Below, one piece after another: positions 47,593 through 57,218 of a DNA stretch of 64,000 bases. Origin of the DNA: Actinomycetes bacterium (GTDB taxonomy: Bacteria; Actinomycetota; Humimicrobiia; Humimicrobiales; Humimicrobiaceae); NCBI GenBank assembly GCA_022396035.1, contig JAIOXO010000008.1, positions 1,830 through 65,829 of the forward strand. Direction: 5' to 3'. Every line of letters begins with the position of its first letter. The stretch's first letter is position 1. Made by a program: the position numbers and the translations under genes. Below the pieces are notes generated by a model. The model was not told the origin of the DNA. It did no database searches and saw only the letters and a program-made list of their open reading frames with translations.

Positions 47593-47621
47593 TTGACAAA
47601 TATTAGCTAACTATATATTAT
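47593..47621 (+). promoter_or_regulatory. Putative sigma70 promoter of the accessory islet
   Basis: TTGACA-17-TATTAT in an extremely AT-rich spacer. Confidence 0.55.
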
Positions 47622-47688: not shown

Positions 47689-48717
47689 ATGTACTTTATT
47701 TTATTAATAACCAAAAATAAAGAAGTAGCAAAGAAAGCTAAAAATAGGCATATAAAAAACTTTAATATAATTATTAAAACAGATCAAAACAACATTGAAG
47801 CAATAATACAGGAATATATGCCGAAATATATTATAATAGCTGAAGATTTGCAGAATTTAGATGATTTAAGAGATTATATATCCGATAATACAGATAGTGA
47901 ATTAATAATTGCCGGGAAGAACAAAACACGGTCCGGCTGTATTCAGGTCCAAGAGTTACAGTGTATAGAAGATCTGGACCAGATATTGAATATAATAAGC
48001 AAGCTGGAACAAGAAAAATCGGAATATAAGGTAATTAACCAGCAGGTAACTTCATTATTTTCTGTTCAGGGCGGGGTAGGCAGAACCAATATTGCTTTTA
48101 ATATGGCATACTATCTGGGCAAAGCAAAAAAGCTTGATGTTTTACTGATTGATTTAAATTGCTGCGAAGGTCAAACAGATCTAGCCTATGATTTAAATAT
48201 ACCCAAATACCCCAATATGGGTAAATTTTTACAGGAAACAGAAAATAGTCCACAATCATTATGGGATTCCATAATACCGGTAAAGAAGTTAGGCACAGAT
48301 ATACTTCAGGCGCCTCTAACTATCGAGCAGAGTGACAATATTTCCATAGATATAATTGATGAAATTATTTATAGTGCCAGAAAAAGATATGATTATATAC
48401 TGGTAGATCTACCCCATAATTACCAAAATTATGTATTTGAAATGCTAAATCTTTCCACCAAGATTATCTTCATCTTTACTCCAACCATGGTGGCAACTCA
48501 TAGAATAAATAAATTTTTAAAATTTCTATCCGGACACCAGGATAGAGAGGCTTTATTGAATCAAGCCAATGAGGATGAGGAACAAATAGAATTATTCCAA
48601 CAGCAACTTAATATAAATCTGGCAGGATCAATTCCTAGTATGGAAAAAAGCCATAAGATTAATGGTTTTTTGGATATGCAGCCTCAGTTATCCTGCTTAG
48701 AAAAGATGATTATTTAA
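47689..48717 (+). CDS. CpaE/TadZ/MinD-like ATPase with degenerate Walker A and a receiver-like N-terminus
   Basis: FSVQGGVGRT..AFNMA, VLLIDLN and YDYILVDLP. Confidence 0.7.
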   Translation: MYFILLITKNKEVAKKAKNRHIKNFNIIIKTDQNNIEAIIQEYMPKYIIIAEDLQNLDDLRDYISDNTDSELIIAGKNKTRSGCIQVQELQCIEDLDQILNIISKLEQEKSEYKVINQQVTSLFSVQGGVGRTNIAFNMAYYLGKAKKLDVLLIDLNCCEGQTDLAYDLNIPKYPNMGKFLQETENSPQSLWDSIIPVKKLGTDILQAPLTIEQSDNISIDIIDEIIYSARKRYDYILVDLPHNYQNYVFEMLNLSTKIIFIFTPTMVATHRINKFLKFLSGHQDREALLNQANEDEEQIELFQQQLNINLAGSIPSMEKSHKINGFLDMQPQLSCLEKMII

Positions 48718-48718
48718 T

Positions 48719-49111
48719 ATGGAACAGGAAAAAAAATTATACACCATTAAGGAAGTTTCAGAACTGGTGGGTATAAGTGAATCCGAGATAATAAGGATGG
48801 TAATGTTAAAAAAATTACCAGCTATAAGGCTGGGTAAGGCAATAAGAATAAATGAAAATGATCTGGAGGAGTTCTTAAATAATTTTATAGGCAAAGAGGA
48901 GCTTGCCGGTAAATCTGAAGAGGAGGCTCCAGTACTATATACTGCAGAACAGGTAGCAAAAATATTGAAATTGTCGGTGGATAATATATGGAATCTTTTA
49001 AAAACCGGAGAATTAAAGGGATTTAAAATCAGAGAAGGAAGAAGCTCCTGGAGGATTCCACAGGGCAGTATTGAAGAGTTCATTGAGAGAAGAACCCAGA
49101 AGAGCGTATAG
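48719..49111 (+). CDS. Tandem HTH_17 (excisionase/BldC-like) DNA-binding protein
   Basis: Two repeats: LYTIKEVSELVGIS...LPAIRLGKAIRI and LYTAEQVAKILKLS...LKGFKI...WRIP. Confidence 0.8.
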   Translation: MEQEKKLYTIKEVSELVGISESEIIRMVMLKKLPAIRLGKAIRINENDLEEFLNNFIGKEELAGKSEEEAPVLYTAEQVAKILKLSVDNIWNLLKTGELKGFKIREGRSSWRIPQGSIEEFIERRTQKSV

Positions 49112-49118
49112 GGGAAAA

Positions 49119-49277
49119 ATGAAGGGGGAAGGACAGAAAAAAAAGAGCCTTACTTTTTGGGAGAAGGCATCAATTCTAATAATAATTTTTTTAATAATTG
49201 TGATACTGGTACTGATTTTTTACCAACAATTAATGGAGTATCTTGAAATTTTAAAAGCCTGGTATGAGAGTGGTTAG
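49119..49277 (+). CDS. 52-aa single-TM protein with type IV/Flp prepilin-like N-terminus
   Basis: SD GGGG/AGGGG. Basic leader MKGEGQKKKS, then LTFWE (Glu at +5) and a long hydrophobic helix. Confidence 0.55.
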   Translation: MKGEGQKKKSLTFWEKASILIIIFLIIVILVLIFYQQLMEYLEILKAWYESG

Positions 49278-49313
49278 CAAGAAGATAAAGTTTTTAAGAG
49301 GAGGTGAAATAAA

Positions 49314-49385
49314 GTGAAAAAGTTAATGAGAGTATTGATCGCGCTAGGTTCATTAGTAGGTATTTGCTCTACAGTAAGATGGTAG
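49314..49385 (+). CDS. 23-aa peptide MKKLMRVLIALGSLVGICSTVRW (copy 1)
   Basis: SD GGAGGTG 7 nt before the GTG start; TAG stop. Basic-hydrophobic-Trp architecture. Below the ORF-track cutoff. Confidence 0.65.
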   Translation: MKKLMRVLIALGSLVGICSTVRW

Positions 49386-49427
49386 AAAAAAGAAGAAAGT
49401 TCTATTAAGAAAGGAAGGTGAAATAAA

Positions 49428-49499
49428 GTGAAAAAGTTAATGAGAGTATTGATCGCGCTAGGTTCATTAGTAGGTATTTGCTCTACAGTAAGATGGTAG
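49428..49499 (+). CDS. 23-aa peptide MKKLMRVLIALGSLVGICSTVRW (copy 2)
   Basis: Own SD (AAGGAAGGTG) and a coding sequence identical to copy 1. Confidence 0.65.
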   Translation: MKKLMRVLIALGSLVGICSTVRW

Positions 49500-49525
49500 A
49501 AAAATTATATTAAATCGCCTTGTTT

Positions 49526-49534
49526 TGGTATAAT
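49526..49534 (+). promoter_or_regulatory. Extended -10 promoter (TGgTATAAT) upstream of the HD-GYP gene
   Basis: Perfect TGnTATAAT about 30 nt before the GTG at 49564. Confidence 0.55.
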
Positions 49535-49563: not shown

Positions 49564-50802
49564 GTGAGCAATACTAAAAAGTTGATTTTACAGGTTTATG
49601 TTCATGCTGTCTTTATAATTGGCATATTCTTGCTATCATTGGTGATTATAAAGTATAGCAATGTTTCCTTGGTGGGAGTGGTGCTGTTCGGGTTTCTGGT
49701 ATTTGCATCAGACAATCTATCATCACCACTCCCCAAAACTGGCAGTGTATCAGTTAATTTTGGTATAACTATGGCCAGCTTAATTCTATTTGGTCCAGCT
49801 ACTGCCAGTATAGTTACCATAATATCTGTGTTCAATATTAAGGAATTTTTAAAGAAGGTTCCCTACTATAAACATCTCTTCAATGCGGGTCAGTACCTTA
49901 TATCCATAGGGGTGGCCAGCATAGTTTTTGAAGCTTTATTCAACCGGTCTGTTGGTAATTTTCTTTCTTTAAATAATATTGGAGTAATTTTTCTTTCTGC
50001 CATTATTTTCTTTTTTTTAAATACTACTTTGACTACAGGTGCTATAACCCTGAGTGAATCGGCAGGATTTTTAAATATCTGGGTTTTCAATTTTGCCTGG
50101 CTTACTCCTTTTCATATATTCTTAACTCTAATGGCGGTTGCCATATCTTTCCTATATTCTACTTATGGGCCTTTTACCCTGCTTTTTACATCATTGCCCT
50201 TGATAATAGCCCAGTATACTTATCTTTTAAGGATAAAAGAGAGAAAAGCCCTGTTAAGCAGTATTTTACAGATAGTAAAGATAATGGAGGCCAAAGATGT
50301 TTATACTGCCAGCCATTCCATGAGAGTGGCTACTTATAGTGAAGAGATAGCCAGGGAAATGAAATTAAATGAATACGATGTTGAAATAATTAGAAACCTC
50401 GCCAATCTGCATGATATAGGAAAGATTCAGGTTGATTTGTCTATATTAAATAAACCAGCTGAATTAAGCCGGCAGGATTGGGAAGAGGTTAAAAAACATC
50501 CAGAAGTGGGTTATGAGATAGTAAAAGAGATAACCTTTTTAAAAGATGCTGCTTCTGGAATACTTTATCACCATGAAAAAGTTGACGGCAGTGGGTATCC
50601 GAGAGGATTAACGGGAGACCAGATACCTTTATTTGCTAAAATTTTGTGTGTAGCAGATTCCTATGATGCTATGACTACTGACCGGCCCTATACCAGGGCA
50701 TTGACCAAACAAGAGGCCATAGGGGAATTAAGGAGAAACTCGGGGACTCAGTTTGATGGAGAAGTTACCGAGGCTATGGTAAAGGTATTAGCCAGGCAAT
50801 AA
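49564..50802 (+). CDS. Membrane-integral HD-GYP domain protein (putative c-di-GMP phosphodiesterase with a multi-TM sensor)
   Basis: About 7 TM helices in the first ~220 aa, then HSMRV, LHDIGKI, HPEVG, HHEKVDGSGYP and ADSYDAMTTDRPY. Confidence 0.88.
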   Translation: MSNTKKLILQVYVHAVFIIGIFLLSLVIIKYSNVSLVGVVLFGFLVFASDNLSSPLPKTGSVSVNFGITMASLILFGPATASIVTIISVFNIKEFLKKVPYYKHLFNAGQYLISIGVASIVFEALFNRSVGNFLSLNNIGVIFLSAIIFFFLNTTLTTGAITLSESAGFLNIWVFNFAWLTPFHIFLTLMAVAISFLYSTYGPFTLLFTSLPLIIAQYTYLLRIKERKALLSSILQIVKIMEAKDVYTASHSMRVATYSEEIAREMKLNEYDVEIIRNLANLHDIGKIQVDLSILNKPAELSRQDWEEVKKHPEVGYEIVKEITFLKDAASGILYHHEKVDGSGYPRGLTGDQIPLFAKILCVADSYDAMTTDRPYTRALTKQEAIGELRRNSGTQFDGEVTEAMVKVLARQ

Positions 50803-50804
50803 GC

Positions 50805-51326
50805 ATGGATAGAGGTTACTATAAAATATTAGGTTTAACCATTGCCCTGCTGGCAGCAGGAGCTGTTGTGGGTTATCTGTTCTTTTATTTTTTAAAAGAA
50901 CCTTCTGTGTTTATTATTGATAAATTTAAAGTATTGCAGGGCTTCTTCGGTATCCGGGAATATGATCAGGACATGACTCTGGTTTATACACTGATTATTA
51001 TTTTTTTTGGAAACCTTTTGTCTACTCTTGGCTACCTGGGTTTGGGTTACCTGAAAGCCAGCCTTCCCCTAGCTTTTATTACCGGATTCTTTATTATAAT
51101 ATTTCTGTTCTCTGGTACAATCCGGCATGCACAGAGCATTCCTGCAGATGTTATTTTGCTGGTTTCAGTAGAAACTGTTTACAGAATGCTTATGCTAAGT
51201 TATGGAGAGTACTGGGCAACCTATAAAAATAGAAATAAACCGCTGGCTTATGCTTTAATATCCATTACAGCGGTTTTATTTCTATTTGGAATTGGTTTCG
51301 AGGTTTACTCTATTTTTTACTTATAA
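50805..51326 (+). CDS. Membrane protein, distantly SpoIIM/DUF95-like
   Basis: 173 aa, 4-5 TM. IIIFFGNL and a Glu inside a TM helix (SVETVY). Starts 2 nt after the HD-GYP stop. Confidence 0.55.
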   Translation: MDRGYYKILGLTIALLAAGAVVGYLFFYFLKEPSVFIIDKFKVLQGFFGIREYDQDMTLVYTLIIIFFGNLLSTLGYLGLGYLKASLPLAFITGFFIIIFLFSGTIRHAQSIPADVILLVSVETVYRMLMLSYGEYWATYKNRNKPLAYALISITAVLFLFGIGFEVYSIFYL

Positions 51327-55541: not shown

Positions 55542-57218
55542 CTACATCTCACTGAAAACCCTCCCCCAATACTGGTCCTCATCCATATCAAGAAGCCCAA
55601 GTATCATCTTCTGAATAGAGGAGAGGCTGTCTTTAAACTCTTTTACAACTTTACCATTTTTTAAGATTTTATACGAAGATATGCCGTCAAAATTATAGAA
55701 TATCCTGGAGGTAGTAGGATAGAATGATTTACGGTATTCAGGATAGATGGGCAAGGACTTAATGCCTTTTTCCTTCATGGCCATCCTTACCTTTCTCTCA
55801 ATTATACCCTGGATTATCAGTGCTACAAAGAACAGAAACATTATCCCTTCAACCCTTTCAATGTTTTTAAACAGTACGGGAGCAGCCTCATGCACACTTT
55901 TAAACTGGTTAAACCTTTTTTCCAGCCGGGGCTGGTATTTGTAGTAGTTTAGCACCTCCCTGGGGCCAATTGAGGTATCAGTAGATAGCAGGGGAAATAT
56001 CCCGTCAACCCTCCTCTGGCGGGCCAGCCTTTCTTTATCCTGCTCCCAGTATAGGGAGTAGTGGGTTAATGTCTCTATCCTGTATTCTGCAGCCGGCCCA
56101 GGCCTGCCCCTGCCCACCTTTTTGCTTTTCTTTTTTATCTTCCTTATGATATCTACATTGATAAAATCCCTGCACCTGTACCTTTTTAGGATGCTTTCTA
56201 CTGCTTTTCTTATCTGCTCTTTTTCTTTAAGCTCTCTTTTGTTCAGTCTGGGAGAAAGGCGGGTAAGTTCTTTTTCTGCCTTTTTTATCCTTTCCTGTCT
56301 CAGGACCCGGTCAAGTTTTCTCTTCTGGCTGGACAGGTACCAGTAGATCCTGTAGCCGCCCTCTTTAGTCCTATAGTCTCCTAAAAGAAGGCTGTAATAC
56401 TCATAACTGCCGGCAATTTGTTTCCTTAGGATCTGCTTCTTTTCCACCTTTTCTGCCAGCAGTTTTTCTTTAAAGGCCTTTGCCTCATTCCATGTATCGG
56501 GCATGGTGGTAATCACCCTGCCTCCGCCTGAGACTATGGCCGATAGATTCTTTTGGGTGCATACCTTGCAGTCTGCCACATAGATAAAGTCAGCCCTTCC
56601 AATAATACTCCTCAGGCACCTCCAGGTCTCTATGTGGGTAGTGTCATCAGTACGGTTTCCGGGGTATGTCTTGTAGTGAACCGGTACCGCCCCGTCTGAG
56701 GAGACAGTCAGGCTAAATACCAGCTGGGCTAAGTCAGGCCTATGGTCCTTGCTTACCCCCCTGGCCATCTTCAGCCCTGTCTTTGTTGTCCCCGGTATCT
56801 TTCCATAAGCCTTTACCGTGGTGGAATCATTGTGGACCCTTCCCGTATCCAGACCCACTTTTTTTATCATCCCTACCACAATCTCGGTCATAAGGGTTGC
56901 CCGGTCTGCGCTATACAGCTTATCCAGGGCTCTTGCGAACCTGTCGTCATTGAAGGCTCCTACCGTATCCTTATCCATACCGTGGCAGCCGGGGTCTATG
57001 TCTTTGACCCACCCGCCAAGCTCATATAAGGGTTGTCTTCCCAGGGTTATGTTCCATACCAGGAGCATAAGTGCATCTTCTGCAGAAGCTTTTTCATTTC
57101 CGTAAGAAGGGATGTGCTTTCCAAAAAGAAACTTAAGCCCTAAGAGATCCGAGGCCTGCTTGACGAGAGGAATACCGGATATATTATATCTTTTTAACTT
57201 TTCGGCATCCCTTGACAT
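55542..57218 (-). CDS. IS1634-family DDE transposase (intact)
   Basis: 558 aa. FNDDRFARALDKL, HNDSTT, GVSKDHRPDL.Q, YPGNRTD, VADCK and YKYQPRLEKRF. Confidence 0.92.
   Translation of the reverse strand: MSRDAEKLKRYNISGIPLVKQASDLLGLKFLFGKHIPSYGNEKASAEDALMLLVWNITLGRQPLYELGGWVKDIDPGCHGMDKDTVGAFNDDRFARALDKLYSADRATLMTEIVVGMIKKVGLDTGRVHNDSTTVKAYGKIPGTTKTGLKMARGVSKDHRPDLAQLVFSLTVSSDGAVPVHYKTYPGNRTDDTTHIETWRCLRSIIGRADFIYVADCKVCTQKNLSAIVSGGGRVITTMPDTWNEAKAFKEKLLAEKVEKKQILRKQIAGSYEYYSLLLGDYRTKEGGYRIYWYLSSQKRKLDRVLRQERIKKAEKELTRLSPRLNKRELKEKEQIRKAVESILKRYRCRDFINVDIIRKIKKKSKKVGRGRPGPAAEYRIETLTHYSLYWEQDKERLARQRRVDGIFPLLSTDTSIGPREVLNYYKYQPRLEKRFNQFKSVHEAAPVLFKNIERVEGIMFLFFVALIIQGIIERKVRMAMKEKGIKSLPIYPEYRKSFYPTTSRIFYNFDGISSYKILKNGKVVKEFKDSLSSIQKMILGLLDMDEDQYWGRVFSEM

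Follow-up and report, generated by a model that had tools for sequence, protein, structure and literature searches.

Tandem 23-codon genes beside a MASE9-HD-GYP gene in Humimicrobiaceae, and a candidate membrane micro-protein partner for a c-di-GMP phosphodiesterase

The repeated micro-genes

The subject here is a tandem pair of very short genes in contig JAIOXO010000008.1 of assembly GCA_022396035.1 (Humimicrobiaceae), of which positions 1,830 to 65,829 of the forward strand, 64,000 nucleotides (nt), were analysed as one stretch and are called the window. A repeat search of the window finds a direct repeat of 2 copies of 89 nt with 100% identity, at 49302-49390 and 49416-49504 with a spacing of 114 nt, and each copy holds an open reading frame (ORF) of 23 codons. 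The gene that starts 64 nt past the second peptide stop encodes a membrane protein with a MASE9 domain and an HD-GYP domain of the cyclic di-GMP (c-di-GMP) phosphodiesterase type. A perfect match of 89 nt cannot have arisen by chance within 64 kb. The features of the array and the enzyme gene are as follows.

49302 to 49390, plus strand: repeat unit 1, consisting of a Shine-Dalgarno sequence (SD), the 23-codon gene and 5 nt past its stop; identical to 49416-49504
49300 to 49307, plus strand: SD of copy 1, GGAGGTGA, 6 nt ahead of the GTG (sequence reading)
49314 to 49385, plus strand: micro-protein gene copy 1, MKKLMRVLIALGSLVGICSTVRW, 23 residues, GTG start (ORF; family hidden Markov model [HMM], E = 1.5e-14; purifying selection)
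49391 to 49415, plus strand: spacer between the copies, unlike the DNA 5′ of copy 1 and homologous to the spacer of relative L145
49413 to 49421, plus strand: SD of copy 2, GGAAGGTGA (sequence reading)
49428 to 49499, plus strand: micro-protein gene copy 2, product identical to that of copy 1, GTG start (repeat, ORF, family HMM)
49564 to 50802, plus strand: MASE9 (about 8 transmembrane [TM] segments) plus HD-GYP protein of the c-di-GMP phosphodiesterase type, 412 residues (Pfam, HHEKVDGSGYP motif)

The first-pass annotation had described an 89-bp perfect duplication whose copies each carry an SD, a GTG start, a Cys six residues from the end and a terminal Arg-Trp, with different DNA 5′ of the two SDs, and the sequence bears this out, the Cys being Cys18. 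An equivalent of the window SD, GGAGGTG, is found in nearly all orthologous copies. The 412-residue protein has the layout of its class, an N-terminal MASE9 domain (PF20972, 37.0 bits against a cut-off of 24.3) followed by an HD-GYP domain (HD_5, PF13487, 126 bits, with HD also matched) that reads HHEKVDGSGYP where the class has HHExxDGxGYP. It has more than 100 orthologues at 59-96% identity, and the relatives all come from metagenome-assembled genomes (MAGs) labelled Actinomycetota or Candidatus Humimicrobiia/-ales/-aceae.

The duplication is no invention of the assembly. The junction of copy 1, spacer and copy 2 (49361-49445) forms a unitig of its own in Logan assemblies made independently from 2 lake-water DNA runs, and contigs from metatranscriptomes and from a related strain (X3) cover it as well. 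Unitig depth in run X1 is 14.8 on both flanks, 47.2 on the repeat (3.2 times) and 34.2 on the junction (2.3 times); in run X2 it is 4.5 and 6.1 on the flanks, 13 on the repeat and 10.3 on the junction. Because these ratios fit three copies with two identical spacers, the true array probably has three copies that were assembled as two, so that the reads uphold the junction and revise the copy number of two upward. Arrays in relatives have 1 to 4 copies. Runs of N or contig ends lie inside the peptide arrays of five loci (L003, L009, L018, L045 and L055). Assemblers evidently break or collapse at tandem micro-genes, and copy numbers taken from MAGs are therefore lower bounds.

Comparison with the relative L145, whose HD-GYP protein is 96% identical, indicates that the tandem copies are an old duplication under concerted evolution and not a fresh one: both of its copies share three substitutions against both window copies, its spacer is homologous, and its two starts are one ATG and one GTG. 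Elsewhere, one or two conservative replacements distinguish the copies of a genome, and every frame is open. The array thus serves as a documented case of concerted evolution and copy-number variation that is prone to collapse in short-read assembly. In one locus (L119, 1084-1210) a peptide copy is followed by the usual spacer and SD and then by the start of a 213-residue secreted-looking protein rather than another copy; this may be a case in which the array spacer was co-opted to start translation of another gene, or else a chimeric contig.

The 23-codon ORFs are genuine, never-annotated genes under purifying selection and are transcribed in relatives. From one-genome-per-species contigs, 56 orthologous HD-GYP loci were taken, and among the 46 with usable upstream DNA a micro-ORF lies 5′ of the MASE9-HD-GYP gene in 45. 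Complete ORFs of 20-24 residues, each behind a strong SD and numbering one to three in tandem, are present in 41 of the 46, and in a further 4 (L012, L015, L055 and L048) the ORF is interrupted by a long-read frameshift, an N-gap or the end of the contig. The sole orthologous locus with a decayed peptide gene is L013 (3330-3425), where the frame reads IKKL, a stop, RILRIMDLLAEICSIARR and another stop, with many non-synonymous changes besides the stop codon, and where the HD-GYP and 173-residue-protein genes are intact. A strong SD precedes every copy compared. Over 37 distinct 23-codon genes the proportion of synonymous differences is 0.735 against 0.201 for non-synonymous ones, and variability is 0.445 at third codon positions, 0.19 at first and 0.11 at second. 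Paralogues of related organisms that are linked to the HD-GYP gene, when set against those that are not, differ at 8-14 of 69 nt and encode exactly the same peptide. The array gives no sign of being an RNA element instead, since its predicted fold is not significant (z = -0.69) and Rfam matches nothing on it.

As to transcription, contigs from several salt-lake metatranscriptomes, of relatives 90-97% identical to the window, cover the array at a word depth of 20-64 where neighbouring genes are absent or at 8-12, a difference that is inflated by copy number on the repeated words and to which DNA carry-over in the RNA runs may contribute; these are assembled contigs of relatives, not reads of the window's own organism. 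The first-pass annotation had proposed hidden peptide genes at this place, and selection, SDs, the 45 of 46 loci and the RNA cover of relatives agree with it. The micro-genes are uncalled in the deposited genome of L145, and none of eight family members is found when their exact sequences are sought among about 15 billion predicted proteins. The case shows how an annotation cut-off of 30 codons misses many real genes. A tblastn search with the peptide against 72,556 plasmids and 50,697 phage records gives no match, and neither does a profile search of the Protein Data Bank (PDB) with the peptide alignment.

Linkage to MASE9-HD-GYP genes within and beyond the class

The adjacency of peptide and HD-GYP gene is kept in three neighbourhoods. 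Context A is the window arrangement, with genes for a MinD-like protein, a protein with two HTH_17 (helix-turn-helix) domains and a 52-residue TM protein 5′ of the array. Context B has a divergent BlaI/BlaR1-like pair on the 5′ side and cobalamin genes on the 3′ side and is without the MinD-like, HTH and 52-residue-protein genes, and it retains the peptide, the HD-GYP gene and a membrane protein of 173-190 residues. The third, L127, has an HD-GYP protein that is only 45% identical and a major facilitator superfamily (MFS) gene in place of the 173-residue-protein gene, and the peptide is retained there as well. A peptide-anchored scan of metagenomes, started from an alignment of 7 sequences, gives 65 loci, 53 of them with at least 400 nt downstream; the HD-GYP gene follows in 37 of these 53 and is missing in 16.

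With the MASE9 part of the window protein as query, a full HMMER search brought up distant relatives, and ten loci, with a G+C of 44-70%, were fetched for nine distant proteins, the representatives being at 24-33% identity. Among single-output relatives of 417-478 residues there are seven distinct loci with upstream DNA (G+C 44-68%), and 6 of the 7 have a micro-ORF at the same place. Five are complete, with 24-26 residues and an SD (MAKVIRIFIALGALVLAGGASYTWR, MKTIAKVVMALVTLVLAGGAYARW, MKARITILLTTLAALLLSGGAHWRW, MSKLMKVLFALLTLLLAGGASVQWSG and MSKIIKAVVVLFALLLAGGAMFQFG), and in L149 a C-terminal fragment (...LAGGADYWW) is all that is present, the rest being cut by the contig start. The exception is L150, which has no micro-ORF and whose record carries no MASE9 Pfam match. 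Two further relatives are long and multidomain; L152 carries a 33-residue ORF with IWW as its last residues, and L153 carries no such ORF. With Humimicrobiia peptides as its only input, an HMM matches the L151 ORF with E = 2.7e-4 among 1,336 small frames, and the other distant ORFs are marginal.

The first-pass annotation had asked for a search upstream of homologous membrane HD-GYP genes for short ORFs ending in Trp. Such ORFs, of 20-26 residues and with a Trp at the terminus or at most 3 residues from it, do turn up class-wide and beside distant MASE9 genes, except at the distant locus L146/147, whose micro-ORF ends in FQFG and has no Trp. Judged from these genomes, a micro-helix gene beside a MASE9 gene is either an ancient pairing or one selected repeatedly. 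Distant HD-GYP loci with other N-terminal architectures (L057-L079) hold no family member and are uninformative on MASE9.

The neighbourhood in the distant loci L146-L151, L154 and L155 runs hpf (S30AE), a protein of about 220 residues without Pfam match, the micro-ORF, MASE9-HD-GYP, DUF5317 and secA; a second HD-GYP gene is sometimes present, and the leader of the micro-ORF has repeated CGAGCGGAGCG-like motifs. The DUF5317 membrane protein follows the enzyme in the position of the window's 173-residue protein. This raises the question of whether a third gene is the true partner, the peptide binding the 173-residue protein (DUF5317 elsewhere) or assembling a complex of MASE9 and that membrane protein rather than signalling. 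We hold that to be quite improbable: a small polytopic membrane protein does lie 3′ of the HD-GYP gene in contexts A and B, and DUF5317 in the distant lineages, but L127 keeps peptide and HD-GYP with the MFS gene instead, and the 173-residue family and DUF5317 have no detectable relation (hhalign probability 0.2%), whereas the constants are the peptide and MASE9.

The micro-protein and its candidate role

The consensus over 37 distinct 23-mers is M-[KS]-K-[LI]-x-[RK]-[IV]-L-x-x-L-G-S-L-[IV]-G-I-[CA]-[SAG]-T-V-R-W, in which K3, L8, S13, G16 and W23 are invariant and L11, L14, I17, V21 and R22 nearly so; V21, R22 and W23 are conserved in 35-37 of the 37, and T20 in 28. One clade has a 20-residue form (MARFFKLIFSLVGLGSTVRW) and another ends in ...VRWG, and peptide variants track the HD-GYP tree. 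On a helical wheel G12, S13, G16, [SAG]19, T20 and W23 fall within 0-120 degrees, with the conserved Leu, Ile and Val on the other side, and G12xxxG16xxxT20 fits the glycine-zipper pattern GxxxGxxxT. The best 15-residue Kyte-Doolittle window scores 2.28 and is preceded by K2, K3 and R6. With fewer than 50 residues, a single hydrophobic helix and a positive-inside N-terminus, the product has the sequence marks of the small membrane proteins that regulate membrane sensors, such as MgrB, and the basic N-terminus, hydrophobic window and terminal Arg-Trp fit a minimal helix with the N-terminus inside and the C-terminus outside.

The first-pass annotation had compared the peptides with pheromone precursors and, for the Cys, with the thiolactone of Agr peptides, and on these points the family takes a different direction. 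In Agr peptides a conserved Cys (or Ser), placed five residues from the C-terminus of the mature peptide, closes the ring. Here 10 of the 37 distinct 23-mers have Ala at position 18, the 20-mers have Gly, and the Cys is replaced at least 4 times independently on the HD-GYP tree. Because Cys18 is not conserved, both the thiolactone and the lipobox ideas are removed. An AgrD identity fails further on the absence of the AgrB protease and the AgrC kinase from contexts A, B and L127. A lipoprotein signal peptide would have the lipobox [LVI][ASTVI][GAS]C, and here Ile precedes the Cys. An SHP/ComS identity of the RRNPP type, with its receptor next door, finds no Rgg, other RRNPP, tetratricopeptide-repeat or AgrB match in the flanking proteins, and the C-terminus is conserved rather than lineage-variable. 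Flp/Tad pilins have a length of about 50-80 residues; their G/XXXXEY motif is absent from the 23-mer, and tadA, tadB and tadC are not found near the peptide array in the window. For a ribosomally synthesized and post-translationally modified peptide (RiPP), motifs or Cys are not conserved and there are no maturation enzymes in any neighbourhood.

A secreted signal in a more general sense needs closer weighing. The 23-mer would then be a signal peptide with its cargo, with n-region MKKLMR, h-region VLIALGSLV and c-region G-I-[CAG], cut by signal peptidase or a site-2 protease to release a C-terminal [SAG]TVRW that is sensed from outside or re-imported. G16 at -3 with C/A/G18 at -1, or I17 with S/A/G19, satisfies the -3/-1 rule of signal peptidase I; signal-like precursors of 21-23 residues have precedents in the enterococcal inhibitor peptides and the streptococcal SHPs; and the Trp-bearing tail is conserved, recurring in distant lineages as ...YARW, ...HWRW and ...SVQWSG. 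That same tail is conserved class-wide without diversification, however, and the h-region has an invariant, face-specific L8, S13 and G16, which is unexpected in a disposable signal sequence. RRNPP/Rgg, Opp, PptAB and AgrB-type genes are not found in any of the three neighbourhoods, the outer loops of MASE9 are short and poorly conserved, and a chain of 23 residues would be complete before it leaves the ribosome, which makes classical co-translational Sec export unlikely. A mature CSTVRW end, as had been suggested, would sit in one of the best conserved parts of the family, [SAG]-T-V-R-W, the opposite of pherotype diversification. We consider a secreted signal improbable.

The best explanation, to which we give about an even chance, is that the product is an intact one-helix membrane partner, or a self-made in-membrane ligand, of MASE9, with its level set by gene dosage. 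Each repeat is a self-contained gene whose 23-residue product belongs to an unannotated family coupled genetically to MASE9-HD-GYP sensors. This micro-protein would most likely enter the membrane whole, with the basic MKKLMR on the cytoplasmic side, one short hydrophobic helix (VLIALGSLVGICSTV) and the C-terminal Arg-Trp at the outer membrane interface. The small-residue face G12/S13/G16/[SAG]19/T20/W23 would pack on the MASE9 transmembrane bundle, and the micro-protein, as a regulatory subunit or in-membrane ligand, would tune c-di-GMP hydrolysis. The variable would be the level of the micro-protein and not its sequence, set by 1-4 tandem genes kept identical by gene conversion, to which some lineages add stand-alone copies with a ribosome-binding site masked by a conserved leader helix. 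Membrane insertion, topology, MASE9 binding and the effect on enzyme activity are inferred from the genes. The dosage role that the first-pass annotation had given to the duplication fits the tandem copy number of 1-4 in relatives.

The same annotation had left open whether the ligand is secreted or membrane-embedded, and we favor the second. The authors who defined MASE9 noted that the outer loops are short and poorly conserved and that polar residues lie in the membrane core, and proposed that the ligand probably binds within the membrane (bioRxiv 10.1101/2021.11.05.467447). Because of these loops and this probable in-membrane site, a membrane-embedded ligand is the better candidate, and the conserved tail and core of the peptide speak against a secreted one.

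A narrower version, which we put forward tentatively and think rather doubtful, is that the micro-protein is itself the signal that MASE9 reads, the enzyme turning peptide level straight into c-di-GMP hydrolysis. Tandem dosage would set this level together with the separately controlled stand-alone copy; that copy has a masked ribosome-binding site and in several lineages is found just 5′ of an hspR-dnaK-type operon, so that its control could be gated by stress or temperature. MASE-type membrane domains are common inputs of c-di-GMP enzymes, and to our knowledge no natural signal for MASE9 is known; a conserved, co-located membrane helix of 20-26 residues is a concrete, testable candidate for that input. 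If this is true, MASE-type domains would have their first identified natural input, and cyclic-dinucleotide phosphodiesterases their first case of control by a micropeptide, one that several bacterial lineages conserve. Full-text literature searches find no account in which an HD-GYP or MASE9 protein has a micro-ORF as its partner, and what is new is the candidate micropeptide partner for a second-messenger phosphodiesterase, a kind of regulator known from modulators of sensors and pumps.

Several observations weigh against a MASE9 partner. The link between peptide and enzyme, as read from the genomes, is one of conserved gene neighbourhood, and it is not strict, since the 16 of 53 peptide-anchored loci without an HD-GYP gene downstream are stand-alone and far from any HD-GYP. 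L013 retains its HD-GYP gene despite the decayed peptide gene. The promoter-like motif between array and HD-GYP gene, described below, hints at separate transcription units. The hydrophobic stretch of the 20-residue subfamily is about 12-15 residues, which is short for a membrane span. Normalised mutual information of peptide columns with MASE9 columns is slightly above that with HD columns in 3 of 4 entropy bins, those of low to medium entropy, a difference that is confounded by phylogeny, and the RNA depths carry the cautions given with them above.

The nearest known systems are MgrB-PhoQ and SafA-PhoQ of E. coli and Salmonella, in which small single-pass membrane proteins modulate a membrane sensor. 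The likeness is in a very small, N-in, single-helix protein with a basic N-terminus, for which action on the TM or periplasmic part of a sensor, with abundance as the variable, is what we propose here. MgrB has 47 residues and a Cys-containing periplasmic tail and its gene is not adjacent to phoQ, whereas the micro-protein has 20-24 residues with essentially no extramembrane part, and its genes are adjacent and tandemly amplified; the candidate partner is also a c-di-GMP phosphodiesterase and not a kinase, and is known from genes alone. In sarcolipin and phospholamban with SERCA, KdpF with KdpABC and AcrZ with AcrB, micropeptide subunits lie in transmembrane grooves. What these systems have in common is a single TM helix, no longer than about 30 residues, that packs against a polytopic partner and ends at the far-side interface in a short tail with a function of its own, but their partners are pumps and not sensors, and the window peptide is shorter and its binding putative.

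The signal-peptide-like pheromone precursors SHP/Rgg, ComS/XIP and enterococcal iCF10 (PrgQ, about 23 residues) resemble the micro-protein in length, basic N-terminus, hydrophobic core, often an aromatic C-terminus, and a gene beside a signalling gene. The neighbourhoods here differ in having no RRNPP receptor or dedicated exporter, the C-terminus and core are conserved, and the sensor would be an integral membrane enzyme. A loose parallel within c-di-GMP signalling is the CD1980.2 family, a multicopy family of 58-residue proteins confined to Clostridioides difficile, encoded 3′ of c-di-GMP-I riboswitches and acting on sporulation (PMC13724677). It has no sequence similarity to the micro-protein and no HD-GYP link.

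Stand-alone copies and neighbouring genes

The 16 unlinked loci come with an SD of their own, about 140 nt of conserved sequence on the upstream side and the hairpin of an intrinsic terminator. For 10 of 11 stand-alone loci the minimum-energy fold hides SD and AUG within a long-range helix (z score -2.0 to -4.7). There are two leader groups, with different but complementary pairs, CACAAYCUC with GAGGUUGUG in one and AAUACCUCC with GGAGGAAU in the other; the helix that masks SD and AUG pairs UUCAUAGCACAAYCUC with GAGGUUGUGAUGAA, with a compensating variant in the second group. RNAalifold finds no consensus structure on these leaders, the alignment holding two groups out of register, and the single-sequence folds were used instead. 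The copies with the conserved leader are those of L083, L084, L095, L097, L099, L107, L110, L128, L130 and L141. Several lie just 5′ of an ORF of 75-88 residues, an HspR-like MerR gene and dnaK, and in general the downstream genes are varied. Such copies point to a product that works in trans and that a gene under separate regulation can supply, and the leader might be an RNA thermometer or a masking structure of the toxin type.

The stand-alone copies leave room for a toxin-like reading, in which the product is a small membrane protein, or a membrane toxin like those of type I toxin-antitoxin systems, that has nothing to do with HD-GYP and is adjacent to it by inherited gene order. The mRNAs of the type I toxins hok, aapA1 and tisB mask their SD by folding back, and the stand-alone copies, with their own terminator and a 5′ leader that pairs SD and AUG in 10 of 11, resemble such inert messages; the product is very short, hydrophobic and tandemly repeated, and its GxxxGxxxT is glycine-zipper-like. 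We nonetheless judge this unlikely. Three rearrangements of the neighbourhood have left the gene next to MASE9-HD-GYP, as has divergence of MASE9 to about 30% identity, and inheritance is vertical, class-wide, syntenic and in step with the HD-GYP tree, not patchy or mobile, with no match among the plasmid and phage records searched above. The linked copies, unlike the toxin mRNAs, are unmasked, with exposed strong SDs, and the fold of the window array is not significant (z = -0.69).

That same absence of significant structure bears on a cis-acting leader ORF, whose translation or nascent-chain stalling would control the HD-GYP gene while the peptide has no function in trans. The ORF and the HD-GYP gene share a strand, with the ORF immediately 5′, its size is comparable with that of the TnaC and Erm leader peptides, and in distant lineages the ORF lies within a leader with repeated AGCG-type motifs. 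Leader peptides with an attenuator are nevertheless a poor match, there being not a single ORF but 1-4 tandem copies, each with its own SD, no significant fold, and a conserved -10-like motif 3′ of the array. The pattern of conservation is that of a membrane helix, with I/V/L/M exchanges and a small-residue face, and not that of a few residues in contact with the ribosomal tunnel. Because stand-alone copies exist, terminated and with varied downstream genes, a purely cis-acting model is weakened further, and we regard it as very improbable.

The remaining features near the array are these.

47689 to 48717, plus strand: MinD/ParA/CpaE-like protein, 342 residues, Walker A replaced by QGGVGRT (Pfam AAA_31)
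48719 to 49111, plus strand: protein with two HTH_17 (excisionase-type) domains, 130 residues (Pfam, NCBIfam)
49119 to 49277, plus strand: unannotated single-TM protein, 52 residues (MKGEGQKKKSLTFWEK...AWYESG), in context A only
49526 to 49534, plus strand: extended -10-like motif TGGTATAAT between the last peptide gene and the HD-GYP gene (sequence and locus comparison)
50805 to 51326, plus strand: polytopic membrane protein, 173 residues, third gene of a trio that most loci conserve, following HD-GYP in contexts A and B

The TGGTATAAT site is conserved as TTTTTGNTATAAT in context-A relatives (L004, L008, L018, L051 and others), and the TGNTATAAT motif is a putative promoter of the HD-GYP gene. 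An RNA contig of run X20 ends at 49523, just short of this motif. Between peptide stop and HD-GYP start the context-B loci L022, L024 and L043 have a palindrome, GAATTAT-N12-14-ATAATTC, followed immediately by TATATT or TATAAT; the palindrome may represent an operator overlying a promoter, or else a weak hairpin. Because a -10-like motif in context A, and the palindrome with its -10-like box in context B, follow the array, the comparison suggests that the enzyme gene has its own promoter in both contexts, and hence a peptide-to-enzyme ratio that could be regulated.

The window holds the end of a division cluster, with homologues of ftsA, ftsZ, sepF, yggT and divIVA, after which the gene order is DUF167, MinD/CpaE-like, two-HTH_17, 52-residue TM, peptide genes, MASE9-HD-GYP and 173-residue protein. 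The MinD/CpaE-like gene, whose Walker A has both lysines replaced, is the probable first gene of the context-A operon, and the best promoter-like site (47593-47621, 11 of 12 matches) lies ahead of it. The two-HTH_17 protein is 59-83% identical across the class, equal to or above the HD-GYP enzyme. The 52-residue protein, with a motif WEK-TM-...W[YF]xxx, is found by a motif scan in 43 loci, is absent from context B and is uncalled in L145. The 173-residue protein has an AlphaFold2 model with six helices and a pLDDT (predicted local distance difference test) of 85; it has no Pfam or PDB relative, the best PDB fold scoring E = 1.2 and one of 32 members giving a weak SpoIIM match.

Searching the array and five related loci against Rfam gives nothing but an unrelated c-di-GMP-II riboswitch in the context-B genome L022 (5949-6035, plus strand; 56.6 bits, gathering score 53.5), which lies about 1.2 kb 3′ of the HD-GYP module and ahead of a 191-residue ORF. 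About 5 kb 3′ of the module in the window, a 558-residue transposase-like ORF of an insertion sequence (IS) element occupies 55542-57218 on the minus strand.

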